From Sandaracinaceae bacterium (GTDB taxonomy: Bacteria; Myxococcota_A; Polyangia; Polyangiales; Sandaracinaceae): a DNA stretch of 64,000 bases. Both the position numbers and the translations under genes were made by a program. The notes under the pieces are model-generated. The model did no database searches. It was not told where the DNA came from and was given only the letters and a program-made list of their open reading frames with translations. Shown here in pieces: positions 49,684 through 64,000 of this stretch (within the stretch, counting starts at the first letter, position 1; the number at the start of each line of letters is the position of its first letter). The DNA lies in contig JBGAQA010000004.1 of assembly GCA_044220955.1 (NCBI GenBank), forward strand, positions 1-64,000, in the 5' to 3' direction.

Positions 49684-51560
49684 GCACCCACGATCGCATC
49701 GGCCGCGATCCGCTCATCGGCCGGACCATCGGCGGTCGCTATCGCCTCATCCAGCGCCTCGGAACCGGCGGGATGTCGAGCGTCTACCTCGCGCGCCACG
49801 TGCTGATCGATCGCCTCATGGCGATCAAGACGCTGCGCCGCGACCTCGCGAGCGACCCCGTGCAGCGCGACCGCTTCATCCGGGAGGCGCGCGCCGTCAA
49901 CCGCATCAACCACGCGAACATCGTCGAGATCACCGACTTCGGCGAGAGCGAAGACGGTCTGGTGTACCTGGTGATGGAGTACATCGCGGGCGAGTCGCTG
50001 CTCAAGGCGATGGGCGCCGGGCCCTTCGCGCCGCTGCGCGCCCTCGACATCGCCGAGCAGGCGGGCAGCGCGCTCGCGCGGGCCCATCAGATGGGCGTGA
50101 TCCACCGGGATCTCAAGCCGGAGAACATGATCCTGGTGGAGCTGCGCGACCGGAAGGACTTCCTCAAGATCCTCGACTTCGGGATCGCCAAGATCACCGA
50201 CGCGCCGTCGCTGACGGGCTCTCAGCAGATCTTCGGCACGCCGGGCTACATCGCGCCCGAGTACATCCAGTCGACGGCGATCGACGGGCGCGCGGACCTC
50301 TACTCGCTCGGTGTGATCCTCTACGAGCTCGTCACCGGCGCGCTGCCCTTCGACTACGAGTACCCCGGCGACCTGCTCGTGAAGCACGTGACGGAGACGC
50401 CCTTCAAGCCGAGCGCGCGCAAGGCCGACGTCCCGGCGCCCATGGAGGCGTTCATCCTCCGATGCCTTCAGAAGAACCCCGACGAGCGATTCCGGGACGC
50501 GTTCCACTTCCTCGACGAGCTCCGCGCGACGCGCGAGCTGCTCGGCCCGGCGCTCTCCTGGGGCGGGCTGAACGAGGCGGACGTCCCGGTCGAAGAGGAC
50601 GACGTACCCGTCCCGATCGGCACGCCACGCCGGCCCATGTCGGCCGAGGCGCGCACGCCGCGCGACGAGGCTCGGGGCCACGACAGCACGCCGACCACCG
50701 AGCAGCTCATCGACGTGCCCGACGAGGCGCGCCGCAGCGACACCACGCTGCCGCCGCCGCCGGACCCGGGCGAGTACCCGAGCGACGGCTCGAGCCGGCC
50801 CGTGACGGCGGAGTACGTTCGTCCGGCGATCCCCGTCGCGCCCAACGACGACCTCGAGGTCGAGATCGAGGTCGAGGAGCCCGCAGGACCGCTCGAGATC
50901 CAGGAGCAGGGCGTCTCCACGGGCCTCTCGGGGGCGCGTCGGTGGCGTGAGCGCTTCGTGGCGATCCGCGCCTGCGTCGAGGAGCTCTCGGGCGGCGCGA
51001 TGCCGCCCGACGAGATCGTGCGCGCGATGGCCCTCGCCGAGCGCTCGATCGAGCAGCTCGAGGAGTCGGTGCGCAGCGCCCGGATGCACCAGCAGGCGGT
51101 CGAGGCGCTCTCCGAGCGCGCGCGCGACTTCCGCGCGACGCTCGGCAAGACGATCGACGAGCTCGCCGCCGAGCTCAGCAAGCGGCGCGGGGAGCTCACG
51201 CTGCTCGCCCAGCGACGGAGCGATCTCGCCGAGCGGCGCGACGCCGCACGGCGCGGCGTGAAGCTCGGCGGCACCACCGAGGGGCAGGCCGACGCGCTGC
51301 TCTGGGAGCTCGCGGCCGTCGAGGAGGAGCTGCGTCAGAAGGGCGGTGCGTGCGACGAGGTCGAGGCGCACCTCGGCGAGCTCCGCGCGCGCCTCGAGCG
51401 CGAGAACGAAGAGCTCGAGATCGAGCTGAGCGTGCATACCCACGTGCTCGACCAGGAGATGGTGCGCCTCTGGCCGCTCGCGACCGCGCTCCGCGATCCC
51501 CTGCAGGAGGTCGAGGACTGGGTGCGCGCGCGATGGGAAGAGAGCCCGCCAGCCTCGTGA
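49680..51560 (+). CDS. Ser/Thr protein kinase with C-terminal coiled coil
   Basis: GTGGMS, AIK, HRDLKPEN, DFG, GTPGYIAPE; no TM segment seen. Confidence 0.92.
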   Translation: MSTHDRIGRDPLIGRTIGGRYRLIQRLGTGGMSSVYLARHVLIDRLMAIKTLRRDLASDPVQRDRFIREARAVNRINHANIVEITDFGESEDGLVYLVMEYIAGESLLKAMGAGPFAPLRALDIAEQAGSALARAHQMGVIHRDLKPENMILVELRDRKDFLKILDFGIAKITDAPSLTGSQQIFGTPGYIAPEYIQSTAIDGRADLYSLGVILYELVTGALPFDYEYPGDLLVKHVTETPFKPSARKADVPAPMEAFILRCLQKNPDERFRDAFHFLDELRATRELLGPALSWGGLNEADVPVEEDDVPVPIGTPRRPMSAEARTPRDEARGHDSTPTTEQLIDVPDEARRSDTTLPPPPDPGEYPSDGSSRPVTAEYVRPAIPVAPNDDLEVEIEVEEPAGPLEIQEQGVSTGLSGARRWRERFVAIRACVEELSGGAMPPDEIVRAMALAERSIEQLEESVRSARMHQQAVEALSERARDFRATLGKTIDELAAELSKRRGELTLLAQRRSDLAERRDAARRGVKLGGTTEGQADALLWELAAVEEELRQKGGACDEVEAHLGELRARLERENEELEIELSVHTHVLDQEMVRLWPLATALRDPLQEVEDWVRARWEESPPAS

Positions 51561-51584
51561 GGTCGAGCGGCGCGCTCGCCGCGG

Positions 51585-52865
51585 TCACCGCACGCTGGGC
51601 AGCATCGTCGGTGGGGCGACCGCCGCGGGCGCCGTCGTGAACTCGACGAAGCGCCGGATCTCGTCGGCGGCCTCCGGCCCCGGCGCGGCGAACTCGAACC
51701 CGATGGCCTGCCGGTGGCGCGCCTCGCGCTTCCAGCGCGCGACCGCGGACAGCGCGACCACGCGGCCGCTCACCGGCAGTCCCACGCGCAGCGTCACGCG
51801 CGCGCCCAGCTCGACGGGGTCGGCCAGCAGGGCCAGCAGCCCCCCCTCGCTGAGATCGGCGGTCTGCCCGTCGCGGACCGCGCCGTCGGCCGCCACCACG
51901 CGGATCGGCGCGACGTAGGGCGCGCGCGCGAAGTGGCGCCGCGGCCTGCCGGTCTCGACCGAGGGCGGGGGCGCCGCCTCGAGCACCCCGAGCGCTCCGC
52001 CGCGGATGCCGGTCGCCTCCACCAGCTCGCTCGCCATCTCCGTCGCGCTCGCGTGGCGGTCGGCCGGATCGCGCTGCAAGGCCCGCTTCATCCACCGGTC
52101 CAGCGCGTCGCAGGGACGCCCGACGGCGCTCGAGAGAGACGGGAGCGGCGATCCGGCGACGAGCGCGCGCACCAGCGCGCGCGTGCCGCCCGCGATCGGC
52201 AGCACGCCCATCAAGCACTCGTAGAACACGAGCGCGAGGGCGAACAGGTCGGCCCGGCTGTCCACGACGTCCGCGAGCAGCTGCTCGGGCGCCATGTAGT
52301 CGAGGGTCCCGATGCGGTCGCCCATGCGCGTCAGCTTCGCCGGGGCCTCGGCCGTCGAGACGAACGCGGCGACGCCGAAGTCGATCAGCTTCACCTGCTC
52401 GCGACCCGCGCGCGACCTGGTGACGAAGATGTTGGAGGGCTTGACGTCGCGATGGACCAGGCCGGCGCGGTGCACCGTCTCCAGCGCGTCGCAGACCTCG
52501 AGCGTGAGCGCCACGGTGCTCTCGAGCGGCAGCTTGGCCCGGGCGATGAGCACGGCGTCGAGCGCGCGACCGTCGAGCATCTCGAGCGCGACGTAGGGAA
52601 TCGCCCCGTCCGTGCCGGCGTCGAGCACGTCGACCACGTGCGGGCTCCGAGCGAGCTCCAGGGCGCGCGCCTCGCGCAGCAGGCGCTCGCCCAGCATGGG
52701 CGCCTCGACCAGGCTCTGATCGACGGTCTTCAGCGCGACGCGCCGGCCGAGGTGAACGTGCTCCGCCTCGAGGACGACGGCCATGCCTCCGCGCGCGATC
52801 TCGCGCCGGACGCGGAACCGATGATCGATCATCTCGCCAGGCTGGGGAACGCGGGGCTCAGGCAC
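51585..52865 (-). CDS. Ser/Thr protein kinase with C-terminal PilZ domain
   Basis: HRDVKPSN, DFG, YMAPE; PilZ motifs RHFAR (RxxxR) and DLSEGG (DxSxxG). Confidence 0.88.
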   Translation of the reverse strand: MPEPRVPQPGEMIDHRFRVRREIARGGMAVVLEAEHVHLGRRVALKTVDQSLVEAPMLGERLLREARALELARSPHVVDVLDAGTDGAIPYVALEMLDGRALDAVLIARAKLPLESTVALTLEVCDALETVHRAGLVHRDVKPSNIFVTRSRAGREQVKLIDFGVAAFVSTAEAPAKLTRMGDRIGTLDYMAPEQLLADVVDSRADLFALALVFYECLMGVLPIAGGTRALVRALVAGSPLPSLSSAVGRPCDALDRWMKRALQRDPADRHASATEMASELVEATGIRGGALGVLEAAPPPSVETGRPRRHFARAPYVAPIRVVAADGAVRDGQTADLSEGGLLALLADPVELGARVTLRVGLPVSGRVVALSAVARWKREARHRQAIGFEFAAPGPEAADEIRRFVEFTTAPAAVAPPTMLPSVR

Positions 52866-54024
52866 GGGTCACTCCTTGGGCTGGCGTTCCTTGTCGCACG
52901 TAGGGCCCGGGCTTGGCGATCAGATAGCCCTGGACGAGATCGGCGCCGAGGTCCCGCACGCACGCCAGCTCGCCCTCCGTCTCGATGCCCTCGGCCACGA
53001 CCAGCATACCGAGGTCGTGGGCGAGGGTGCAGGTCGATCCGACGACGCGCCTGCGCACCGGATCCGTGTCCACGCCGCGCGTCAGGGACATGTCGATCTT
53101 GACCACGTCGGGCGAGATCCGCGCGAAGTAGCTGAGCCCCGCGTACCCGGCCCCGAGATCGTCGATCGCGATCCGGTATCGCAGCTTGCGCAGCGCCTCG
53201 ATCCGCGACTCCACCTCGCCGACCCCCTCGAGCGACGCCCGCTCCGTGATCTCGAGCACCACGTTGGCGGCGTGCTCGCTGAGCGGCGCGGACGGGTCGT
53301 AGAGCTGCGGGTCCGCGAGGTCGCTCGAGTGGAGGTTCACGAAGAACGCGTGGTCGAAGGGCCGTGCCTCGCGCGCCAGGCCCGCGATCATCCCGCGGAG
53401 CTGGCGCCCGAGCGCGTGGAGCCGACCGAGCAGCTCGGCTGCGCCGAGGACGGCGGGCGGGTTGGGCAGGCTCGGCTCCGACGAGCGCATCAGCGCCTCG
53501 TACCCCGACACCCTGCGTGTCGTGACGGAGACGATGGGCTGGTAGACGAGCCGAAGGCTCGACGACGCGCGCTGGAACGCCGCGTCGAGCGCCTCCCGCT
53601 CGTCGCGGCTCGGCCCGGACGCCCGGGCGCGCGTGAGGCGCCCCCACTGCACGGCCTCGCCTACCACCTCGCGGACGCGCGCCGCGTCGACCGGCTTGGC
53701 GAGGTAGCGCACCACACCCAGCTCCATCGCGCGCATCGCGTCCTCGACCTTCGGAGCGCCCGTCAGGAGCACGACCGGCACGTCCGGGTGGGTCCGGCGC
53801 AGGACCGCGAGCATCTCGAGGCCCGTCATCTCCGGCATCGAGACGTCCGAGACGATCGCGTCGACGTCCTTCATCGTCTCGAGCGCGCGAATGGCCGCCC
53901 CCGGTGACGTGAACGTCTCGACGCGGTGCCCGTGCGTCGCGAGCACGTCGGAGAGGGTCCTGGCGACCATCGGGTCGTCGTCGATCACCACCACGCGTGC
54001 GTCACTGCTCGCTCGATCATCCAT
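52858..54024 (-). CDS. Response regulator REC-EAL c-di-GMP phosphodiesterase
   Basis: REC (IDDD, SDVSMP, KP); EAL motifs YEALMR, VN, EITE, DDLGAGY, KID, EGIE, QGY. Confidence 0.92.
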   Translation of the reverse strand: MDDRASSDARVVVIDDDPMVARTLSDVLATHGHRVETFTSPGAAIRALETMKDVDAIVSDVSMPEMTGLEMLAVLRRTHPDVPVVLLTGAPKVEDAMRAMELGVVRYLAKPVDAARVREVVGEAVQWGRLTRARASGPSRDEREALDAAFQRASSSLRLVYQPIVSVTTRRVSGYEALMRSSEPSLPNPPAVLGAAELLGRLHALGRQLRGMIAGLAREARPFDHAFFVNLHSSDLADPQLYDPSAPLSEHAANVVLEITERASLEGVGEVESRIEALRKLRYRIAIDDLGAGYAGLSYFARISPDVVKIDMSLTRGVDTDPVRRRVVGSTCTLAHDLGMLVVAEGIETEGELACVRDLGADLVQGYLIAKPGPYVRQGTPAQGVTRA

Positions 54025-56884
54025 GGTCGTTCCTCACTTCGTCGGGGCCATCGCCCTGGGGCGTCCACGCGCGGGACTGGATCAGAGCGCGGACGGCGCT
54101 CGCGTCGACCGGCTTCGGTAGCCGTGGGAATTGCGGGTCGATCCCGTCTCCGTCCCGGCTCGTGAGCAGCACCAGGCGGCTCGCGACCTCGGGTCGCCGC
54201 GCCAGCAGCCAGGGCCACCCGCCGCCCGTCCGCGAGTCACCCGCGCGCGCCTCGCAGAGCACGAGGTCGAAGCGCTCGCCGTCCTCGAGGCGTGCCCACG
54301 CCGACTCGGCCGCGTCGGTCACGACGACCTCGTGGTCGCCGCGCAGCGCTCTCGCGATGCCGTGCCTCACGAGTGGATCCCGATCCACGACCAGCAGGCG
54401 TCGTCGTCGAGCGCTCGGCGGGCTCGGGCTCGAGACCCGCGGCGGCTCGGCGCCGAGGGGTGCTCGCGCGAGCCACACGGTGAACGTCGTCCCCGCTCCG
54501 AGCGTCGACTCGCATTCGATCGTGCCGCCCGCGTCGGCGACGATGCGCTGGCTGATCGAGAGCCCGAGTCCCGTCCCCGTGCCCACCGGCTTCGTGGTGA
54601 AGAAGGGCGTGAACACGCGGCGCAGCGTGTCGGGGGTCATGCCAGGGCCGTCGTCGCAGATCGTGATCTGGGCCCCGCCGCTGCGGCCGGAGCTCGCCCG
54701 CACCCGGATCTCGCCGTGGCGTCCCGTCTCGGCGATCGCCTGCGCCGCGTTGACGATGAGGTTGACGAAGACCTGCACGAGCCGGCTCTCGGAGCCCATC
54801 GCGATCGGGACGTCCTCGATCGTGGTGTGCACCGTGGCGACCGCGCGCGTCGCCGCGTGCGAGATGCGCAGCGCCGCGTCGAGCGCGTGGCTCACGTCCA
54901 CCGGGACGATCTCGTCCCGGGGCGCCTCGCGTGAGAGCGTGCGGAGGTCGGCGACGATGGTGCGCACGCGTCGTGCGGCATCCAGCGCGGTGCGCAGGCG
55001 CCCGGCCCCCTTGCCGGTCTGCCCGATGTCCTCGAGCGCGAGCTCGATCTCGGCGACGACGGTGGTCATGGGGTTGTTGATCTCGTGCGCGATGCCGGCG
55101 GCGAGCACGCCGACGCTCGCGAGACGATCGTTGGTGATCTGCCTGACCTGTGCCTCGCGCTCCTGCGTCACGTCGCGGAGCACGGCCACGGCGCCCGCGA
55201 TCTCGCCCGCGTCGCCCTCCACGGGACGCGAGGTGACGGCGACCCAGCGCCGCTGGTTGCCCTCCGCGCGCGTGGAGATGACGCCGTCGGCGGGCTCGCC
55301 GCCGAGCGCTCTGGCCATGCTCAGATCTTGCCAGCCGCACGTCGTGACCTGACCGTCGAGACGGAGGTCGAGCCGCTCTGGCCACGCCGGTCCGGGGAGC
55401 TCCCCGATCTGCGCGACCAGCTCCCGCGCGGCCTCGTTCGCGCGGGTCAGCTTCGCGTTCCGGTCGAGCACGAGGATCGGATCCCCGATCGCATCGAGGA
55501 TCGACTCGAGCAGGTGCGCGCGCGCACGCTCGGTCTGCGAGACGTTCTCGAGCTGCTGGAACGTGCGCGCGAGCGCCAGCACGAGCGCGAGCTGCCCAGC
55601 CACGACCTCTGCGAAGTCGACGCGCTGGTCGTCGAGCGCCTCGGTGGCGTGCAGCACGATGGCGCCCAGCAGCTCGTCGCGGTGGACGACGGGCACCACG
55701 ACCGCCTCGCCCCCTTCGATGCCCACGCTGGCGCTGGTCACGCGGAGCGGAGTCCGCAGGTCCGCGCTGGCGGCCAGCTGCGCCATGAGCTGCTCGGCGG
55801 AGCTCTCCACGTCGGTGCGCGCCTCCCCGATGCTGCGGCGCACCCAGCGCGAGCCGCTCCGCACGACCACTCCGCCCCAGGCGATGCCGCCCAAGTCGAG
55901 ACACGCGTGCAGCGCGGTGTCGACGGCGCGCTCGACGTCGCCGGTCTCGGCCAGGACGCTCGTGAGACCTCCCAGCACCGCGAGCCGCGCCGAGAGCGCG
56001 GCGGTGCGCTGCGCGAGCACGGCGTTGCGCGAGAGCTGGCGATCGAGCTGGCGGGCCAAGCGCCCGGCGTGGTCGGGCGCGCCCTCGGCCGACGGCGGCG
56101 CGGGACGATTCGACCGGACCCTGCCGTTCGCGATGCGCCGGAGCTCGGGGATGGTCTCGTGGACGTCGTGCGCGCGCGCGAGGTAGGCATCCGCGCCGAC
56201 GCGCTGGGCCAGTGCGCAGTCCTCGGGCTCGAGGTCGCTGTTCGTGAGCAGCACGACCGGGATCGCGGCGAGGTCGGGGTCGGCCCGCACGCGGCTACAG
56301 AGCTCGAAGCCGTCGATGCCGGGCATCAGGACGTCGCTGACGATGAGGTGGGGGTGGTGCTCGCGCGCGGCGTGCAGCGCGGCGTGTCCGTCGGACGCGC
56401 TGATCACCTCGAAGCCGGCCTGGCCGAGGCGCAGCGCCCACAGGCGTCGCTGCGTGGCGTCGTCGTCGACCAAGAGCAGCCGAGTGCCGCGCCCGGCCGG
56501 GGGCGCGAAGCTCGCCGAGGTCGGCAGGTGCGCCTTCACGGAGTTGACGAGGCGGGGTGGGTCGATCGGCTTGGCGATCACGTCGTCGAACCCGGCCGTC
56601 GCGAGGCGCGTCTCGTCCGCGCCGGTCACCAGCCCGGTGAAGGCGAGGATCGGCACGCCGGGACCGACGCTCGCCCGCAGGGGAGCGAGCAGATCGAAGC
56701 CGTTCCCGTCGGGAAGGAGCAGGTCGAGCAAGACCAGGTCGGGACGCGCCGCCTGCGCCTCGGGGATGGCGTCCTTCGCCCGGGCGGCCTCGCTCACCGC
56801 GAGGCCCTCGGCCTCCAGCAGCGAGCGAACGAGGCGCCGGGTCCACGCGTGGTCGTCGATCAGCAGCACGCGCGCCCGGCTCAC
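54017..56884 (-). CDS. Cytoplasmic hybrid histidine kinase (REC-REC-GAF-like-PAS-HisKA-HATPase-degenerate REC)
   Basis: VLLIDD, LLLVDD, AHEINNP, NLIVNA, DDGPGM, FFTTK, GTGLGL. Confidence 0.88.
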   Translation of the reverse strand: MSRARVLLIDDHAWTRRLVRSLLEAEGLAVSEAARAKDAIPEAQAARPDLVLLDLLLPDGNGFDLLAPLRASVGPGVPILAFTGLVTGADETRLATAGFDDVIAKPIDPPRLVNSVKAHLPTSASFAPPAGRGTRLLLVDDDATQRRLWALRLGQAGFEVISASDGHAALHAAREHHPHLIVSDVLMPGIDGFELCSRVRADPDLAAIPVVLLTNSDLEPEDCALAQRVGADAYLARAHDVHETIPELRRIANGRVRSNRPAPPSAEGAPDHAGRLARQLDRQLSRNAVLAQRTAALSARLAVLGGLTSVLAETGDVERAVDTALHACLDLGGIAWGGVVVRSGSRWVRRSIGEARTDVESSAEQLMAQLAASADLRTPLRVTSASVGIEGGEAVVVPVVHRDELLGAIVLHATEALDDQRVDFAEVVAGQLALVLALARTFQQLENVSQTERARAHLLESILDAIGDPILVLDRNAKLTRANEAARELVAQIGELPGPAWPERLDLRLDGQVTTCGWQDLSMARALGGEPADGVISTRAEGNQRRWVAVTSRPVEGDAGEIAGAVAVLRDVTQEREAQVRQITNDRLASVGVLAAGIAHEINNPMTTVVAEIELALEDIGQTGKGAGRLRTALDAARRVRTIVADLRTLSREAPRDEIVPVDVSHALDAALRISHAATRAVATVHTTIEDVPIAMGSESRLVQVFVNLIVNAAQAIAETGRHGEIRVRASSGRSGGAQITICDDGPGMTPDTLRRVFTPFFTTKPVGTGTGLGLSISQRIVADAGGTIECESTLGAGTTFTVWLARAPLGAEPPRVSSPSPPSARRRRLLVVDRDPLVRHGIARALRGDHEVVVTDAAESAWARLEDGERFDLVLCEARAGDSRTGGGWPWLLARRPEVASRLVLLTSRDGDGIDPQFPRLPKPVDASAVRALIQSRAWTPQGDGPDEVRNDHG

Positions 56885-56895
56885 GCGCAGGGTCG

Positions 56896-56911
56896 AGCAT
56901 GGCCCGTGCCG
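56896..56911 (-). promoter_or_regulatory. Sigma54 (-24/-12) promoter of the leftward operon
   Basis: CGGCACGGGCCATGCT on the minus strand (GG-N10-GC); predicted TSS ~56885, at the GTG start. Confidence 0.65.
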
Positions 56912-56950
56912 CGCGGGACCGGTCGCCCACGACCCGAGCGGGCGCGGAGT

Positions 56951-56988
56951 TGGTCCATTTCGTCCACCCACCTGGCCGAAATGGACCA
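56951..56988. promoter_or_regulatory. Perfect inverted repeat, candidate enhancer/operator
   Basis: TGGTCCATTTCG-N14-CGAAATGGACCA, central in the divergent intergenic region. Confidence 0.65.
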
Positions 56989-57018
56989 CCTCGCGCTGGC
57001 CCGAATGACACCGTCGGC

Positions 57019-57035
57019 CGGCACGCCTCGTGTAA
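57019..57035 (+). promoter_or_regulatory. Possible sigma54 promoter of the rightward operon (GG-N10-GT variant)
   Basis: CGGCACGCCTCGTGTAA; good -24 box, GT instead of GC at -12. Confidence 0.4.
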
Positions 57036-57049
57036 CACTGGCACCTGCG

Positions 57050-59353
57050 ATGAGCGCTGCCGTCCCGCGCATCCTGGTGGGCATCGTGCTCGCCGCGGCC
57101 TTGCTCGTCGCCAGCGCGCTCGCCGCATCGCGGGCGTACGGGACGGCCTTCCCTTCGCTCTTCGTCGATCCGTTCGGTGGCTTCTCCGCGGTGACGCTTC
57201 CGGCCTGGGGCGACGGGCTCGACGTGGAGATCGGCGCGCCCGTCACTCCGTCGGAGGACGGGGCGGACGCGAGCTCGCTGCCGGCGGAGCGCCTCTCGGC
57301 GGCTGCGGCCGCAGCCGAGGCGCGGGGCGACACTTCGCTCCGCGTCGTGATCGGCGCGCCTCCTGCGGCCCGGCAGGTATCACTTCCTCTGCGCCGGCTG
57401 GGCGCCGCCGAGATCCTCTGGCTCTACGGGCTCTACGTGCTCGCCGGCCTGCTGCTCCTGTGGTCGGGGATGATGGTCGGGGTCGTCGCGGGCGAGCAGG
57501 CGGGGGGGCGCGCGTACGTCGCGCTCGCGCTCGTCGCGTTCGTCTTCCTGGTGACGTTCCTCGACTACCACACCACTCGTTGGCTCGCGCCGCTGTTCGC
57601 GGCCGCCACCGTCGGGAACTCGGTCGCGCTCTTCGGCCTCGCCTGGCACTTCCCCGAGGCACCCGCGGTCGGTCCGACGGCCCGCCGGATCGCCGCGCTG
57701 GCGCTCTGGATCGGCGTCGCCTTCTCGATCGCCCTCGCGCTCTGCGTCGCGCTCGGGATCGACTTCCGAGCCGGCCGACGGCTCGCGGACCTCCTCGCCC
57801 CGTGCGCGCTCTTCGCGCCCATCGTCGGCGTGCTGCTGCGGATGTATCGACGCGACGCGCAGGGCGCGCGCAAGCAGGTCAGGTCGGCGGCGCTGGCGCT
57901 GCTCGCCGTGCCCATCACGCTCGCCGTGGCGTTCGCCGTGCTCCTGTCGCTGGGACGGCTCGCGGTGTTTCCCGCGGCGCTGCCGTTCGTATCGTTCGCG
58001 GTCCCGGGGGCGATCGGCACCGCCCTCATCCGTCACAACGCGCTCGGCGTTCGTCGGGTGGTCACCCAGCGCCTGCTCTACCCGCCGATCGGCCTGATCG
58101 CGTGCACTCTCGCTGCCGCCTTCGCGCAGCCCTTGTGGGCTCCCGGGACCTGGGTCCAGTCGATCGCGGTCGGCGCTTCGGTCGGCGTCGCGTTCTCGCT
58201 GCTCGCCGTGACCTTCGTCGCCCGCGTGTTCGGGCGCGCCACCGCGACGTTCCAGCCCACCCTCGAGGGGCTCGCCGACGAGGTCGCGGCGCTGCGCAGG
58301 CCCGATGCCATCCGTGGGCGCCTGGCGGAGCTGGTCCACCGGTGCCTCCCCTCGCGCGACGTGCGCAGCGTGTCGGCGAGCGAGCTCGACTCGCTTCGCT
58401 TGACCGAGATCGATCGCCGAAGGCTCGCGGCCGGCCAGACCGTCTGGACGGATCCGGCACAGAGCGCGCCCGAGCCCTCGCTCGTCGCGCCGCTCCGGTT
58501 CGGTGGACAGGCGCTCGGCGCGCTGATCGTGTCGCCTCGCGCAGGGGACGGCTTGTTCACGGACGCCGAGATCCGCATGTTCCAGACGATGGTGAGCCTC
58601 GGCGCGCTCGCGCTCCACCACGCGGAGCTGCTGCGCGAGGTCGAGGAGCGGCGGGCGATCGAGGTGGCGGCGACGCGCGGCGACGGCCGACGCGCCGTCG
58701 ACGCCATCGCCGCCGAGATCGCGCACGAGCTCTCGTATCCCATCACCTTCTTCCGGCACACGCTCAACCAGGTGGCGGCCGGACGGCTGAGTCACGACAT
58801 CGTGGAGGTCGGCAAGGACGAGGTGGAGCGCCTCGAGCGCATGCTCGCCTGGGTCCGCAAGCTGCAGGTGCCGGTGCCGGAGGTGGGGCGGGTGCGCGTG
58901 CGCCTCGTGGTGGGTCACGCGCTCGTGCTGCTGCAGAGCGAGCTCGAAGCCCGGCACATCACCTGCGACGTGGACGTCCCCGCGGAGCTCGAGGTCGCGG
59001 CGGAGCAGGACGCCCTGCTCCAGCTGGTGGCGAATCTGCTCCGAAACGCCATCCGCGCGGCGCGATCCCGCGTCGGCGTCGCGATCCGGGACGAGCGAGG
59101 GCTGCCCGAGCTCGCGGTCTGGGACGACGGTCCGGGCGTCCCCGCGGATCTCGTCGAGCGGATCTTCGATCCGTCCTTCACCACGCAGAGCGACGTCGAG
59201 GGGCACGGGCTCGGCCTCGCGGTCGCCCAGCGCGTGGTCACGGGGTTCGGCTGGAGCATCGACGTGCGTCGCGAGGACCAACGAACGGTGTTCGCCGTCT
59301 CCATGAGGCAGCGCGGCGCGCGCGCCGACGTCCTCAAGCGGGTCGCGTCGTGA
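57050..59353 (+). CDS. Multi-TM membrane sensor histidine kinase (TM bundle, GAF-like, HisKA, HATPase)
   Basis: About nine hydrophobic segments; EIAHELSYP, NLLRNA, DDGPGV, GHGLGL. Confidence 0.88.
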   Translation: MSAAVPRILVGIVLAAALLVASALAASRAYGTAFPSLFVDPFGGFSAVTLPAWGDGLDVEIGAPVTPSEDGADASSLPAERLSAAAAAAEARGDTSLRVVIGAPPAARQVSLPLRRLGAAEILWLYGLYVLAGLLLLWSGMMVGVVAGEQAGGRAYVALALVAFVFLVTFLDYHTTRWLAPLFAAATVGNSVALFGLAWHFPEAPAVGPTARRIAALALWIGVAFSIALALCVALGIDFRAGRRLADLLAPCALFAPIVGVLLRMYRRDAQGARKQVRSAALALLAVPITLAVAFAVLLSLGRLAVFPAALPFVSFAVPGAIGTALIRHNALGVRRVVTQRLLYPPIGLIACTLAAAFAQPLWAPGTWVQSIAVGASVGVAFSLLAVTFVARVFGRATATFQPTLEGLADEVAALRRPDAIRGRLAELVHRCLPSRDVRSVSASELDSLRLTEIDRRRLAAGQTVWTDPAQSAPEPSLVAPLRFGGQALGALIVSPRAGDGLFTDAEIRMFQTMVSLGALALHHAELLREVEERRAIEVAATRGDGRRAVDAIAAEIAHELSYPITFFRHTLNQVAAGRLSHDIVEVGKDEVERLERMLAWVRKLQVPVPEVGRVRVRLVVGHALVLLQSELEARHITCDVDVPAELEVAAEQDALLQLVANLLRNAIRAARSRVGVAIRDERGLPELAVWDDGPGVPADLVERIFDPSFTTQSDVEGHGLGLAVAQRVVTGFGWSIDVRREDQRTVFAVSMRQRGARADVLKRVAS

Positions 59354-60726
59354 GCATCCTGGTCGTCGACGATCAGCGCACCGCGCGGGTGATCCTGCGG
59401 GACATCCTGGCCGACGAGGGGCTCGCGGTCCTCGAGGCGGAGAACGCAGCGGAGGCGCGCCGGCTCAGCGCGGAGCACGCGATCTCGCTCGCCTTCGTCG
59501 ACATCCGGCTCTCCAGCGATCCACGAGATCGCAGCGGGCTTGAGCTCGTACGCGAGCTGCGCGAGACCAGCGGCGCCTCGGTCGTCGTCGTCTCCGGGCT
59601 GCGAGAGACGCACGAGGTCCGCGCGGCCTTCCGCTTCGGAGCCGACGACTACCTGCTCAAGGACGAGATCGCCGAGGAGACGCTTCGCCCGATCGTCGCC
59701 CGCGTGCGCGAGCGCGCTCAGCTCCTCGCGGAGGTCCACGCGCTCCGAGCGCGGGTCTCGGGTCGTCCGCGCGAGGTCACGAGCATCGTCGGCACCTCGG
59801 CGCCGATCCGCGCGCTGCGCGAGCGGATCCGCCGCGTCGCCAGCTCCGCGCGCCCCGTCCTGGTGAGAGGCCCCTCGGGCTGCGGCAAGGAGCTGGTCGT
59901 CCGCGAGATCCACGCGCTCGGCCCGGCGCCGGACGCGCCGCTCTTCGACGTCAACTGCGCGGCCCTCCCGGAGTCGCTCGTCGAGTCCTACCTCTTCGGC
60001 CACGAGCGCGGCGCCTTCACGGGGGCCGATCGGCGCATGCCGGGTGCGTTCGGAGCCGTCGGAAGCGGCACGCTGTTCCTCGACGAGGTCGCGGAGCTGT
60101 CGCCGACGATGCAGGCGAAGCTCCTGCGCGTCCTGGAGTCGAACCGCTACCGAGCCATCGGCTCGACGCGCGACCAGTCCTTCACCGGACGTATCGTCGC
60201 CGCCACACACGCGGACCTCGAGGCGCAGGTGAAGGTGGGCCGCTTCCGGGAGGATCTCTATCACCGGCTCGACGTGCTCGTGGTCCGCGTGCCCCCGCTC
60301 GGCGCGCGCAGGGAGGACATCGCCTCGCTCGTCGCGCACTTCGCTCGGCAGCAGCCCCGCGTGCTCCGGTTCACCGAGGAGGCTCTCGGAGCGCTCGAGC
60401 GCGCCGAGTGGCCGGGCCACGTTCGACAGCTACGAAACGTGATCGATCGCCTGGCGGTGCTGCACGAGGACGACCCCATCACGGCTGACACGGTGCACGC
60501 CGAGCTCGGCGTCGTGGACGAGAGCCCTGAGCTCTCGACCTTGGCCCGCCTCGCGCTGGCGCGGCCCGGGCCCAACCGGCTCGAGGCGCTCGAGCGCGCG
60601 CTCATCGAGGAGGCCCTGCGCATGTCGCGCGGGAGCCACTCCGAAGCCGCGCGCCTTCTCGGCGTCCACCGAAAGCGCATCGCGCGCCGGGTCGGACGGA
60701 GCGAGTGGCCGACCGAAGCGGACTGA
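59350..60726 (+). CDS. Sigma54-dependent response regulator (NtrC-type enhancer-binding protein)
   Basis: REC; GPSGCGKE; HERGAFTGA; LFLDEV; FREDLYHRL; Fis-like HTH. Confidence 0.95.
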   Translation: MSILVVDDQRTARVILRDILADEGLAVLEAENAAEARRLSAEHAISLAFVDIRLSSDPRDRSGLELVRELRETSGASVVVVSGLRETHEVRAAFRFGADDYLLKDEIAEETLRPIVARVRERAQLLAEVHALRARVSGRPREVTSIVGTSAPIRALRERIRRVASSARPVLVRGPSGCGKELVVREIHALGPAPDAPLFDVNCAALPESLVESYLFGHERGAFTGADRRMPGAFGAVGSGTLFLDEVAELSPTMQAKLLRVLESNRYRAIGSTRDQSFTGRIVAATHADLEAQVKVGRFREDLYHRLDVLVVRVPPLGARREDIASLVAHFARQQPRVLRFTEEALGALERAEWPGHVRQLRNVIDRLAVLHEDDPITADTVHAELGVVDESPELSTLARLALARPGPNRLEALERALIEEALRMSRGSHSEAARLLGVHRKRIARRVGRSEWPTEAD

Positions 60727-60768
60727 GCGCCCCGGACGACGAGCGCTCACATGCGCGGGTGATGAGGG

Positions 60769-60786
60769 TTGGTGTGCGGAATGCAA
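60769..60786 (+). promoter_or_regulatory. Sigma54 (-24/-12) promoter of the biosynthetic operon
   Basis: TTGGTGTGCGGAATGCAA (GG 60771-60772, N10, GC 60783-60784); ATG at 60799. Confidence 0.6.
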
Positions 60787-60798
60787 GGGGCCGCACCC

Positions 60799-61764
60799 AT
60801 GACCTCCACCCTCCGAACCTCCGAGCCCCTTCGTCTCCTCGAATCGACACGCGCGCGCGCGCGCCCCGCGCGAGCGATCGCGGCGTCGCTGCGCGCTGCG
60901 ATCGGCGCCTCGTGGTCTGCCCACGAGCGCGCCTTCCCGCTGCACCAGAGCGACTCCATCACCTTCGACCGCACCGAGCCCGTCGAGACCGAGTGCTTCT
61001 CGATCGCGACGATCCTCGATCTGTGCGGCCACCACGTGGACGCTCCGACGCGGCGCGCCGCGCAGCGGAGCCTGCTCGACGACCTCGCGCGCAGCGGCGA
61101 CCTCGTCCGCTTCTTCCGGTCCGAGCGCCTCCCTCCGGACGCCGACTGCACGGCCGTCGCCGCCCTCGCCTTGTGGGAGCTCGGCGCGCTCGACACGCGC
61201 CGCGCACGCTCGATCGCGTCGCGCTTGCTCGACCATCGCACGCGAGACGGCCGGATCTCGGTCTACTTCGACGACGAGGGGGAGCGCGCCGAGCGCGTCG
61301 ACGCCGTCGTGACGTGCAACGTCCTGCGCTTCGCGACCCAGGTCGGCATCGCCGAGCGCTCGGCGAGCGACGTCGAGCAGATCCGGGCGGCGCTCGGCAG
61401 CCCCACGCGGTACTACCCGGCCGACGTGCTGCTCTTCGCGGCGGCGCGGCTCGTCCACGCTCGCGCCGACCTCGCGCCCGCGCTCGCACCGATGCTGCGC
61501 GAGGCGCTCGCGGCGAGGCGCGCGTCCGAGGCGACGTCCCTGGAGCAGGCGTGCCGGGCCGCCGCGGCGTTCTACGCCGGGCTCGAGGCCGAGCACGTGC
61601 TCGAGCTCGCGCTTCCGCTGCGCGACGTGTCCCGGCCGTTGCGGCCGGAGCCGTTCTTCTCGCTGGGACGTCGTGCGTCGTACTTCGGATCGACGCCGCT
61701 CACGGCCGCGTTCCGACTTCACGCGATCACCCTCGGGGCCTCCGTCGGAGCGGGCCATGACTGA
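60799..61764 (+). CDS. Standalone class II terpene-cyclase-like (beta-domain) protein
   Basis: LPPDADCTAVA, DGRISVYFD…RVDAVVTCNVL, TRYYPADVLLF, YFGSTPLTAAF resemble the cyclase domain of HAD-type drimane synthases and monodomain cyclases (from recall). Confidence 0.65.
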   Translation: MTSTLRTSEPLRLLESTRARARPARAIAASLRAAIGASWSAHERAFPLHQSDSITFDRTEPVETECFSIATILDLCGHHVDAPTRRAAQRSLLDDLARSGDLVRFFRSERLPPDADCTAVAALALWELGALDTRRARSIASRLLDHRTRDGRISVYFDDEGERAERVDAVVTCNVLRFATQVGIAERSASDVEQIRAALGSPTRYYPADVLLFAAARLVHARADLAPALAPMLREALAARRASEATSLEQACRAAAAFYAGLEAEHVLELALPLRDVSRPLRPEPFFSLGRRASYFGSTPLTAAFRLHAITLGASVGAGHD

Positions 61765-62893
61765 GCCCGTCGAGCACTTCCGGGGCGCTGCTGGAGCGGC
61801 GCGCCTCGAGGGCGATCGCCATGGGGCCCGCGGTCGCTACCTCGCGGCGCTCGTGCGCGGTCCGCTGCGCCAGTACGCCGACAACGTCGGAGACGTCCGG
61901 ATGGAGGTCGTCGCGGTCGGCGAGACGCTGGTGCCGATCCTGCTGAACGACGGTGGGGACACGGACTGCTACCTGACCTCTCCGATCGGCTACTACGTCC
62001 GCTACGTACGAGACGAGATCCCGCGTCTGCGACAGGACGCCTTCACGCGGGTCTTCGACAAGGTGATCGCGGGGCTCGAGCACCCGCTGCGCTGGTCGTC
62101 GTTCAATCGTGTCGCGTACGTGAATCACTGGCTCATGAGCACCTCGCCGCGCGTGCGCTTCGACCGCTCGAGCCTCGAGGCGCTCACGCGCCACCTCGAG
62201 CGCGAGTACCCGACGCACACCCTCGTGTTTCGCGGTCTGACGCGCGACGAGACGGAGCACTGCTCGAGCTTCGCGGCGGCGGGCTACGAGCTCGTGGTGA
62301 GCCGTCCGATCCACGTGTGGAGCAGCGATCGCCGGGTGGAGTCTCGCGACACGCGGCGCCAGCGCGTCTGCGACGCGCGCGCCGTCGAGCGCTTCGTCGT
62401 CGGACACGAGCCCTCCGCGCACGACCTCGACGCCATCCCGGCGCTCTATCGCAGGCTCTACGTGGAGAAGTACTCGCGGATGAACCCGGCGTACACGCGC
62501 GCGTACTTCGCGCACCTGCTCGACTCCGGCTGGGGCGCGGTGACGATGCTCCACTCGGACGGCGCGCTGGTCGGCTTCGTGACCCACGCGATCGACGCCG
62601 ACGGTGCGCTGCTCGGCCTGAGCGTGGGGCACGATCCGGCCGTCTCCCAGCGGGACCTGCCCGTCTACCGCGCGCTCGTCTCGACCCTCTTCCAGCGCGC
62701 CGAGCGCGAGCAGAGAGCGCTCTTCCTCAGCACCGGGGTGTCCGACTTCAAGCGGCGGCGCGGCGCGGTCGAGCTGCTCGAGTTCGACGCGGTGCGCGCG
62801 GCGCACGCGCCTTGGCCCGCGCGCGCGGCCTGGTGGACGGTCGGGAGCGCCTTCGATCTGGCGATCCAGAACATCGACACGAGGCAGGTATGA
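61757..62893 (+). CDS. GNAT-superfamily protein
   Basis: CYLTSP, YVNHWLMST, LYRRLYVEKYSRMNPAYT, STGVSDFKRRRGA. Confidence 0.7.
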   Translation: MTEPVEHFRGAAGAARLEGDRHGARGRYLAALVRGPLRQYADNVGDVRMEVVAVGETLVPILLNDGGDTDCYLTSPIGYYVRYVRDEIPRLRQDAFTRVFDKVIAGLEHPLRWSSFNRVAYVNHWLMSTSPRVRFDRSSLEALTRHLEREYPTHTLVFRGLTRDETEHCSSFAAAGYELVVSRPIHVWSSDRRVESRDTRRQRVCDARAVERFVVGHEPSAHDLDAIPALYRRLYVEKYSRMNPAYTRAYFAHLLDSGWGAVTMLHSDGALVGFVTHAIDADGALLGLSVGHDPAVSQRDLPVYRALVSTLFQRAEREQRALFLSTGVSDFKRRRGAVELLEFDAVRAAHAPWPARAAWWTVGSAFDLAIQNIDTRQV

Positions 62894-63780
62894 GCGCGCA
62901 CGCCAGCACGCTGCGCGTGGGCCTACGCGACGTGGTTCGCACGGCGCGCCTCCCCAAGATCGCGCCGGTGCCGCTGCTCGCGTGGAGCGGCTACGCGCTC
63001 CGCCACGGACGGGACGTCCTGCCGCTGGCCTGGGTCACGCTCGCGGTCGTCGCGGTCACGCTCCTGGTGACCCGCCTCAACGTGCTCACCGACGAGTCGC
63101 TCGACCTTGCGAGCCGCCCCGAGCTCGCGCGCGGCCTGCGGCGCAGCGCGCGGTTCGTCGTCGGCGCGAGCGTGGTCGAGGTCGCGCTGCTCTGCGTCGC
63201 GTTGCTCGCGGTGGACGGCGACGCTCGTCTCGCGCTCGTCGCGCTGCTCGCGTTCGGCGTGCTCTACTCGTTCAACTTCCTGTCGCCGCATCCGGTGCGC
63301 TCGCGCTGGAAGGCCCACTGGCTCGGCCACGCCGCGGCGTTCGTCGGGAGCTATGCCGCGCTCTGGGCCGCGGGAGCCGGCGCGGCCGGGCACGGCGGCG
63401 GGGCGCTCGTGCTGCTCGTGGCGCTCGCCACCGGCGTCGTCGACTACGCCGTGTACGTCGGCGAATGCGCGATCGACCACGACGAAGAGGCCTCCGCGGG
63501 CCTGCGCACGGCGGCGGCGCTGCTCGGCCCGCGCACGTCGTCCGTGCTCGCGCTCGTCCTGTTCGGCGCCGGTGCCTGCCTCCATGCCAGCTGGATCACC
63601 ACCGCGCTGGCCGCGGCGTTCGTGCCGCCGCTCGCGCTGCGAGGCACGTTCCTCGTGGCACTCGCCGCCGCGGAGCTCGGAGGCCACCGGGATCGCGCTC
63701 ACGCGCTGCGCTCGCGCGCGGCCGACGCCGTGTTCCTCGCGACGCGCCTCTGGACCTTCTTCGCGCTCGCGCTCGCCTGA
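62890..63780 (+). CDS. UbiA-family prenyltransferase
   Basis: Multi-TM; NVLTDESLD (NxxxDxxxD), LYS, DHDEEASAGLRT. Confidence 0.75.
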   Translation: MSAHASTLRVGLRDVVRTARLPKIAPVPLLAWSGYALRHGRDVLPLAWVTLAVVAVTLLVTRLNVLTDESLDLASRPELARGLRRSARFVVGASVVEVALLCVALLAVDGDARLALVALLAFGVLYSFNFLSPHPVRSRWKAHWLGHAAAFVGSYAALWAAGAGAAGHGGGALVLLVALATGVVDYAVYVGECAIDHDEEASAGLRTAAALLGPRTSSVLALVLFGAGACLHASWITTALAAAFVPPLALRGTFLVALAAAELGGHRDRAHALRSRAADAVFLATRLWTFFALALA

Positions 63781-63786
63781 GCGTCG

Positions 63787-64000
63787 TCAGTACGTGCGGA
63801 CGCCCGAGAGGAGCCAGCCCTGGCCCTCGCGGCGGAGCGTCAGCGTGACGTGCACGCGCTCGCCGTCGACGCGCGCGCCGACCGAGACCGTGCCCGTCTC
63901 GCCGCGGACGTCGACCTCGTCCTGCACGATCTCCACGTGACCGTCGCGGTCGAGCGGCTCGAGCGCGTCGTGCAGGACGTCGGGCAGCGCCGCTTCGTCG
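63787..64000 (-). CDS. 3' end of a CDS running off the window (NTF2-like beta region)
   Basis: Manual translation …VDVRGETGTVSVGARVDGERVHVTLTLRREGQGWLLSGVRTY*. Confidence 0.5.
   Translation of the reverse strand, partial: DEAALPDVLHDALEPLDRDGHVEIVQDEVDVRGETGTVSVGARVDGERVHVTLTLRREGQGWLLSGVRTY

Follow-up and report, generated by a model that had tools for sequence, protein, structure and literature searches.

A stand-alone drimenol-synthase-type cyclase behind a two-component system in a Sandaracinaceae bacterium hints at an undescribed terpenoid signalling circuit

Does a membrane sensor control the synthesis of a terpenoid in this bacterium and, if so, in which order do the enzymes act? The question is raised by a stretch of 64,000 nucleotides from an uncultured Sandaracinaceae bacterium of sludge (contig JBGAQA010000004.1 of assembly GCA_044220955.1; source genome 7.5 Mb, 72.5% GC, 88% complete), hereafter called the window. 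Five genes near its end, all on the plus strand, encode a membrane sensor kinase, an NtrC-type sigma54 activator, a class II terpene cyclase, a GNAT-superfamily transferase and a UbiA-superfamily membrane protein (Table 1). The kinase and activator genes overlap by 4 nt, the cyclase and GNAT genes by 8 nt and the GNAT and UbiA genes by 4 nt; the five reading frames and the overlaps of the enzyme genes had been given correctly in the original prediction, which was made from the sequence alone and read the locus as a sigma54-controlled operon that prenylates an acceptor and then cyclises it with an MstE-type enzyme. We find that the locus consists of known parts in a new combination, with a recurring sensor-cyclase link, and it hints at an undescribed terpenoid signalling circuit. 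The reading that we favour, from sequence comparisons and structural models, is a sensor-controlled pathway in which the cyclase acts first and the UbiA protein second; we give it an even chance.

The cyclase and its partner enzymes

The cyclase gene encodes a single domain of 321 aa without a fused HAD phosphatase. A sequence search of the PDB returned drimenol synthase first (E value 7.7e-14). The structural model, built on 63 aligned sequences with a predicted local distance difference test score (pLDDT) of 93, was superimposed on the drimenol synthase AsDMS with a VIA Z of 34.4 (root-mean-square deviation (rmsd) 2.8, 299 residues aligned), and Foldseek matched the two with an E value of 3.6e-14 (TM-score 0.77-0.79), confirming the predicted class II (alpha/alpha) fold. 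The match to MstE, the merosterol cyclase of Scytonema, was lower (Z 25.6, rmsd 3.3, 281 residues aligned), and the profile of the cyclase family found AsDMS with an E value of 1.5e-82, AstC with 2e-51 and MstE with only 7e-4. MstE shares with the window cyclase the single alpha/alpha toroid domain and a D-x-D motif, which aligns with D-A-D in the window cyclase, but it belongs to a different clade and is 11-15% identical in structural alignments; MstE and AsDMS (DMS-1) are also treated as separate clades in PMC12324236. By model and profile, the cyclase is thus of the AsDMS/AstC (DMS-1) beta-domain type and not of the MstE type to which it had been assigned.

The catalytic residues of AsDMS are D331, D333 and Y427, and its diphosphate ligands are Y373, R378, R380, R425, Y426 and R513 (PMC12365925). 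The acid motif D-x-D-x-T and the activating Tyr are present in the window cyclase as D114, D116 and Y206, and sequence alignment places Y156, R163, R204, Y205 and R291 at the positions of Y373, R378, R425, Y426 and R513. An orthologue with 57% identity (P0006) has kept the same catalytic residues and all five mapped diphosphate residues. The aromatic cage is a further feature in common with AsDMS/AstC (HAD-TCbeta; PDB 9MHS, 9M7D-F, 22TY), whereas the window cyclase has no fused HAD domain and no QW-like motif, is 7 residues shorter ahead of the RYY motif and is partnered with UbiA, GNAT and a two-component system. Since the D-x-D/Tyr and the diphosphate-binding residues are kept, cyclisation of a free diphosphate would come first: as judged from the residues, the enzyme most likely cyclises farnesyl diphosphate (FPP) or geranylgeranyl diphosphate (GGPP) before the UbiA step, the reverse of the prenylate-then-cyclise order proposed at first. 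GGPP is not turned over by AsDMS homologues (PMC9128629).

What the cyclase family does with its product was deduced from fusions and neighbours. Among the best 150 of 181 representative relatives, 104 are 270-420 aa long (some may be contig fragments) and 31 are longer than 420 aa. The latter carry a class I synthase (14), a HAD domain (8), a His-phosphatase (1), a methyltransferase (1) or nothing else (7), so that a diphosphate-consuming domain is fused in 23 of the 31; not one of the 31 has at least three hydrophobic segments. In 13 of 19 metagenome cyclase loci that were scanned (62 frames), a class I synthase was found in or beside the cyclase in six and a UbiA protein in none. Because these fusions and neighbours are class I synthases and phosphatases, the usual next step in the family consumes the cyclic diphosphate, and at this locus the UbiA protein is the sole candidate for it. 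AsDMS-type beta domains fused or adjacent to class I synthases occur in both orders, often with a P450 (P0011, P0015, P0034 and others; loci L131, L135, L138, L146, L223, L225 and L226), and no characterised member was found among them.

Two known systems cyclise first. PtmT1 is UbiA-like, and the transferase Rv3378c is not known to be of the UbiA type. In PtmT2/PtmT1-like pairs, a class II cyclase makes a cyclic diphosphate on which a UbiA-fold enzyme then acts (PMC4004862, PMC9814783), but PtmT2 is a two-domain GGPP cyclase of actinobacterial clusters whereas the window cyclase has one domain. Rv3377c/Rv3378c, which produce tuberculosinyl adenosine, also cyclise first, and a small acceptor then receives the cyclic terpenyl group (PMC9814783), but there the cyclase has two domains and neither a sensor nor a GNAT is linked. 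Pairs of a class II cyclase and a UbiA cyclase are described in PMC4004862 and make up 14% of 342 clusters with an ent-copalyl diphosphate (ent-CPP) synthase in PMC9814783, and UbiA-type terpene synthases are known (10.64898/2026.10.28.762581).

The UbiA protein matched its Pfam family with an E value of 5.5e-6, under the curated cut-off, and 30 of 30 Atlas matches were UbiA proteins (best 0.94). Motif 1 is intact (N64-x3-D68-x3-D72) and motif 2 reads D196-x3-E200 (DxxxE); the motifs of the superfamily are NxxxDxxxD and DxxxD (10.64898/2026.10.28.762581). Six hydrophobic segments were counted at the cut-off used. The GNAT protein was assigned by Pfam (Acetyltransf_6, E value 1.8e-7) and Atlas (0.98), so both assignments of the original prediction stand, that of UbiA by Atlas and motif 1. 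Neither protein had a sequence match in the PDB. The GNAT model is of low confidence (pLDDT 64); Foldseek gave no match at an E value of at most 0.001, FemX coming first at 1.1e-3, and in superposition FemX (Z 10.9, rmsd 6.0, 255 aligned) was tied with single-domain acetyltransferases (Z 11.8). From this model, the protein is possibly a tandem-GNAT, FemX-like aminoacyl- or acyl-transferase.

The sensor, the activator and the promoter

The sensor kinase consists of an N-terminal transmembrane segment, an extracytoplasmic domain, about eight more transmembrane segments, a GAF domain and a kinase. Pfam matched HATPase_c and GAF, the H, N and G boxes are present and a hydropathy scan found nine hydrophobic segments, in line with the predicted multi-transmembrane His kinase coupled to the activator. 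Residues 172-174 in the membrane region read D-Y-H and are invariant in the sensor alignment (A5). The sensor type is single-copy in the host genome (genome-wide profile search) and rare: 10 of 300 sampled genomes of the phylum matched, just one of them strongly. Matches of the sensor profile to solved structures were confined to the GAF and kinase parts. The activator has a receiver with its phospho-Asp, an AAA+ domain with Walker A and B motifs, a Fis-type helix-turn-helix and the predicted intact GAFTGA (residue 221); it agreed with sigma54 enhancer-binding proteins in every feature tested, and rpoN is encoded in the genome.

Whether the link between sensor and cyclase is peculiar to the window was asked with cyclase searches of sampled genomes and, for the order, with a profile of six cyclase sequences against 385 other genomes. 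The profile matched 15 of these, and all 16 loci were examined. In four of the 15 genomes (G502, G436, G491 and G476), the cyclase adjoins a sensor homologue, and an activator lies within a few kb; they belong to three other families, G491 and G476 sharing a genus. The sensor homologues are 29-43% identical, with the membrane region covered, and the activators 47-63%; gene order differs between the loci, and in G491 two separate frames make up the sensor. Chance adjacency amounts to ~14 kb of the 9 Mb in each carrier genome, so that the four cases are not chance, though related genomes are not independent. The predicted coupling of a sensor-activator pair to a terpene cyclase thus recurs, and the sensor-activator-cyclase core looks older than the trio of enzymes, with GNAT and UbiA as lineage-specific additions. 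Another genome, G495, was taken up as the source of a close cyclase orthologue and was rejected: despite its high profile score the protein is 32% identical, its neighbour is a class I synthase, and the queries used detected neither GNAT nor UbiA in G495.

The sigma54 box had been predicted between activator and cyclase, and its position was as described: the GG begins 45 nt past the activator stop codon, and the box lies 14 nt ahead of the cyclase ATG, a near-leaderless geometry. The motif by itself proved less telling, since the bare GG-N10-GC is at chance level (917 on the plus strand of the window) and the consensus match is weak (4 mismatches; chance 0.085 per 72 nt); its core TGG-N9-TGCW has a chance of 0.0095 per 72 nt. 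The spacing was then compared genome-wide (3,580 candidate ATG starts, the window's own box not counted). Boxes with at most two mismatches were seen 19 times at 11-15 nt before an ATG versus ~2.4 expected, and boxes with the core of the window box 12 times versus ~3.2; boxes with five and six mismatches showed no excess. About 40-75% of such boxes at this spacing are not due to chance. Because its distance to the ATG falls in the peak of the genome's sigma54 boxes, the box is credible as a promoter, and on this pattern we lean towards a real one, which is predicted to give a near-leaderless transcript. The genome-wide count overturned an earlier view that a 14-nt spacing speaks against a promoter. 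Across the genome, sigma54-type boxes accumulate 12-14 nt ahead of ATG codons, which implies many leaderless sigma54 transcripts in the host; a literature search for such transcripts in myxobacteria found no case, and the match that it gave concerned a sigma-A promoter. A perfect 7-bp inverted repeat ahead of the box, its arms 12 nt apart and lacking a T-run, could be a candidate activator site or a hairpin. The activator genes of G491 and G476 are themselves preceded, at ~45 nt, by a good sigma54 box (with 3 and 2 mismatches; L233:12380-12560, L234:1930-2120), and this placement suggests positive autoregulation.

The proposed pathway and its alternatives

In the favoured cyclise-first pathway, the membrane kinase would phosphorylate the neighbouring activator, which would drive transcription of the three enzyme genes from the sigma54 box and give a near-leaderless mRNA. 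The cyclase, whose fold and residues are those given above, would protonate FPP or GGPP from housekeeping synthases via D116, aided by D114 and Y206, and release a bicyclic drimane- or labdane-type diphosphate, activity and chain length being predicted. The host genome encodes three polyprenyl synthases, two of which have an aromatic residue five positions before the first Asp-rich motif, presumably a mark of short-chain enzymes. The UbiA protein would replace the class I synthase or phosphatase of the relatives, ionise the cyclic diphosphate and either transfer the cyclic group to a small acceptor, which is somewhat likelier, or quench it to an alcohol or olefin. The GNAT protein would acylate or aminoacylate the acceptor or the product, the weakest step of the proposal.

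A number of observations weigh against this pathway. The AsDMS product, drim-7-enyl diphosphate, is non-allylic and thus a poor UbiA donor, whereas the AstC product is a delta-8 drimane; for cyclisation to come first, the product would therefore have to be a delta-8 drimane or a C20 compound. A QW-like motif present in 41 of the 63 aligned sequences is lost in the window cyclase and also in P0006, and the two sit on a long branch of the cyclase tree (these trees are quick searches with long branches). The trio of cyclase, GNAT and UbiA was found in none of the other genomes and contigs searched, among which those of the closest orthologues, P0006 (1,748 bp) and P0003 (2,351 bp), are not included. 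In three of the four sensor-linked loci the cyclase is convergent to the sensor or the activator. The four linked cyclases form a clade of their own (Shimodaira-Hasegawa-like approximate likelihood ratio test (SH-aLRT) 97) with 21-25% identity to the window cyclase, which joins them at an SH-aLRT of 81 only; they keep D-x-D and YY but have lost Y373, R425 and R513, so their substrate may not be a diphosphate, and the window cyclase would either have replaced an older cyclase or have diverged strongly. No UbiA, GNAT or prenyltransferase was found in the frames scanned around them (32 in the last scan, 31 of which came from 47 picked in wider flanks). When loci were reached from the membrane region of the sensor instead, none of seven had a cyclase, although one of these contigs has 2,950 bp, two stretches are below 7 kb and a cognate activator is present in two of the seven; in one of the genomes without a cyclase (G230), the sensor-activator pair precedes an alpha/beta hydrolase, and most of the others have distant sensors or short contigs. 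The window box scores poorly on a matrix made from the 46 best boxes of the genome (chance 0.13 per 72 nt), boxes with four mismatches are enriched at 11-15 nt just 1.6-fold (31 versus 19.5 expected), and before three of the four other sensor-linked cyclases no box of this kind was found that is followed by a start codon within 8-19 nt.

Several of these points would be met by the order that had been proposed at first, in which UbiA prenylates an acceptor, the cyclase cyclises the tail and GNAT decorates the meroterpenoid. The MstE cluster includes a UbiA-type prenyltransferase partner. This order sidesteps the non-allylic donor, it fits the long branch, the D-A-D motif and the loss of diphosphate ligands in the other sensor-linked cyclases, and the binding mode of AsDMS has been likened to that of merosterolic acid synthase (PMC12365925), whereby the basic site could hold a carboxylate or phosphate. 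The substrate of MstE is, however, a prenylated dihydroxybenzoate, whereas the window cyclase and P0006 keep the five mapped diphosphate ligands and the operon has no gene for making an aromatic or other acceptor; moreover, the usual partners of the cyclase family consume diphosphates and the profile barely separates MstE from noise. We therefore regard this order as unlikely, though it survives best among the alternatives.

Compatible with either enzyme order is a terpenoid autoinducer loop, in which the product would be exported, sensed by the adjacent kinase and raise its own synthesis. A rare single-copy sensor lies beside a class II cyclase in four families including that of the window, the two closest sensors found (42-43% identity) both flank a cyclase, the D-Y-H in the membrane region is invariant and good sigma54 boxes precede the activator genes of G491 and G476. 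But those sensors were found via the cyclase search, which makes the sample biased, and none of the seven loci reached from the sensor side has a cyclase; the window box lies downstream of sensor and activator, so that the enzymes alone would be induced, the island on which the genes lie has no exporter, and the same layout would be expected if the kinase sensed stress or prey and had a terpenoid as its output. We consider the loop doubtful. The layout resembles Bacillus ComQXPA, where an isoprenoid-handling enzyme stands beside a multi-transmembrane sensor kinase of ~770 aa and a regulator, but no peptide precursor gene was found here and the regulator is a sigma54 activator.

A reading with a peptide precursor like ComX was considered and rejected, as no homologue of the small frames and protease-like genes of the other loci was found in the window or the genome. 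These frames are a ~110-aa protein and a 374-394-aa protein conserved between sensor and activator in G491 and G476 (L233:9757-11216, L234:2340-3903), the longer one showing motifs that look protease-like on inspection although Pfam gives it no convincing match, and a clostripain-family gene just upstream of the sensor in G436 (L232:2-1177). The pair and the clostripain are a possible peptide-processing part of those circuits; the likeness of the G491/G476 protease-like proteins to the G436 clostripain is marginal. In a member of the sensor-linked clade from G716 (L229:3581-8310), the cyclase gene begins within the last part of a gene for a LanM-type lanthipeptide synthetase (DUF4135 and LANC_like), hinting at a terpenoid-modified peptide.

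Improbable, and the weakest of the alternatives, is a recent mosaic on a signalling island without a single regulated pathway, in which GNAT and UbiA would serve other substrates or drift and the box would be chance, with transcription by read-through: unrelated signalling genes on the island, the orphan UbiA and the GNAT-family neighbours described below speak for it, and the start-stop overlaps that join the three enzyme genes, the intact catalytic motifs, the intact cyclase (57%) and GNAT (74%) orthologues in other samples and a sensor-cyclase adjacency far above chance against it.

Beyond the favoured pathway, one may picture a circuit family in myxobacteria-like predators, in which the rare multi-transmembrane kinase would detect a cyclic terpenoid or its conjugate from the neighbouring single-domain cyclase and the chemistry would be varied by swapping cyclase and tailoring genes, the window product being an aminoacylated drimane or labdane autoinducer; this we put forward as a speculation that is doubtful in its turn. 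The literature searched, in which subscription journals are largely uncovered, held no description of a stand-alone AsDMS-type cyclase, of the cyclase-GNAT-UbiA trio, which had been predicted to be undescribed, or of the sensor link; stand-alone forms might be among the supplementary sequence lists of the AsDMS paper and of that on cyclase phylogeny. A terpene-cyclase-made bacterial signal with a cognate kinase was not found either, in searches not aimed at signalling specifically. Thallusin is a precedent for a terpenoid that acts as a signal across kingdoms; it is synthesised by a different set of genes, which includes one for a UbiA enzyme (10.64898/2026.05.21.724671). In the AsDMS paper a stand-alone cyclase has been proposed as the ancestor of the fused AsDMS, and since the DMS1 survey in PMC12324236 kept only matches of 550-650 aa, stand-alone forms were not sampled in it. 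The locus draws attention to stand-alone drimenol-synthase-type cyclases, a large set of which no member was found characterised; the recurring sensor-activator-cyclase link gives the search for a terpene-cyclase signal a small and concrete starting point, and the three short enzyme genes of the locus are easy to express and assay.

The island and the distribution of its genes

All features of Table 1 lie on a lineage-specific insertion, whose flanks are separated by 145 bp in one congener (G419) and by 728 bp in another (G422). The insertion has a GC content of 73.2% versus 73.9% in the left flank and thus equals the host, and the GC content at third codon positions is 0.91-0.94 across the five genes from kinase to UbiA. 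Cyclase and UbiA were not found in five congeners (81-97% complete). Parts of the 64-kb stretch are contained in 20 sludge or bioreactor runs from eight studies; in two of four runs aligned, from two other sludge studies, near-identical contig pieces span all four gene junctions. Since the pieces span every junction, the five-gene order is not an assembly artefact. Rfam had no match within 50000-64000.

Table 1 Features of the insertion in the window
Feature	Coordinates	Strand	Basis
Lineage-specific insertion, 12.2 kb, holding all genes listed	51543..63786		Flank comparison with congeners
Ser/Thr kinase with C-terminal PilZ domain	51585..52865	-	Pfam Pkinase and PilZ; island cargo
Receiver-EAL protein	52858..54024	-	Pfam Response_reg and EAL; island cargo
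Hybrid histidine kinase (receivers, GAF, PAS, HisKA, HATPase)	54017..56889	-	Pfam; divergent from sensor; start approximate
Membrane sensor kinase	57050..59353	+	Pfam, hydropathy, alignment A5, genome-wide profile search
NtrC-type sigma54 activator	59350..60726	+	Pfam, NCBIfam, motifs
Perfect inverted repeat	60724..60749		Sequence and fold
Sigma54 -24/-12-like box	60770..60785	+	Consensus, matrix, spacing counts
Stand-alone class II terpene cyclase beta domain, drimenol-synthase (AsDMS/AstC, DMS-1) type	60799..61764	+	PDB match, model, profile, residues
GNAT-superfamily transferase, 378 aa	61757..62893	+	Pfam, Atlas, low-confidence model
Orphan UbiA-superfamily membrane protein	62890..63780	+	Pfam below curated cut-off, Atlas, motifs

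The predicted trio did not prove syntenic elsewhere. Neither the cyclase profile nor the UbiA sequence matched any of 88 GNAT loci (eight loci plus the 80 best of the 137 that a genome scan gave), and no examined cyclase locus had the GNAT and UbiA partners; since the trio was not found elsewhere, it is the overlap of the genes that ties GNAT and UbiA to a function with the cyclase. A close UbiA relative was found in none of 31 genomes of the family and was not among six paralogues tested in the own genome, and four of 400 genomes of the phylum had weak partial matches. A word-index protein search gave three GNAT relatives and no cyclase or UbiA relative beyond their own clusters, plasmids had no cyclase match and a single-protein GNAT query against genome contigs found none, while an intact GNAT orthologue with 74% identity is present in other samples.

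The GNAT protein belongs to a family of ~370 aa found in many phyla (L021-L100), where it repeatedly has DUF3419, ATP-grasp, Rieske, FabH and AMP-binding genes as neighbours, apparently an unnamed biosynthetic module. Of 132 flanking frames picked at the GNAT loci, 107 were scanned; DUF3419 was found 17 times, Rieske 11 times and ATP-grasp nine times, and no terpene or UbiA family was among them. In G687 (L224:1904-7659), a cyclase of the main family follows a gene for a FadL-type outer-membrane channel, near HMG-CoA-synthase-like and chemotaxis genes.

The remaining genes of the insertion form a block on the minus strand. Homologues of its Ser/Thr kinase-PilZ, receiver-EAL and hybrid kinase proteins are encoded at other places in the congeners. 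The Ser/Thr kinase-PilZ gene is island cargo with at most a putative link to the pathway, and the block as a whole suggests a link to cyclic di-GMP.

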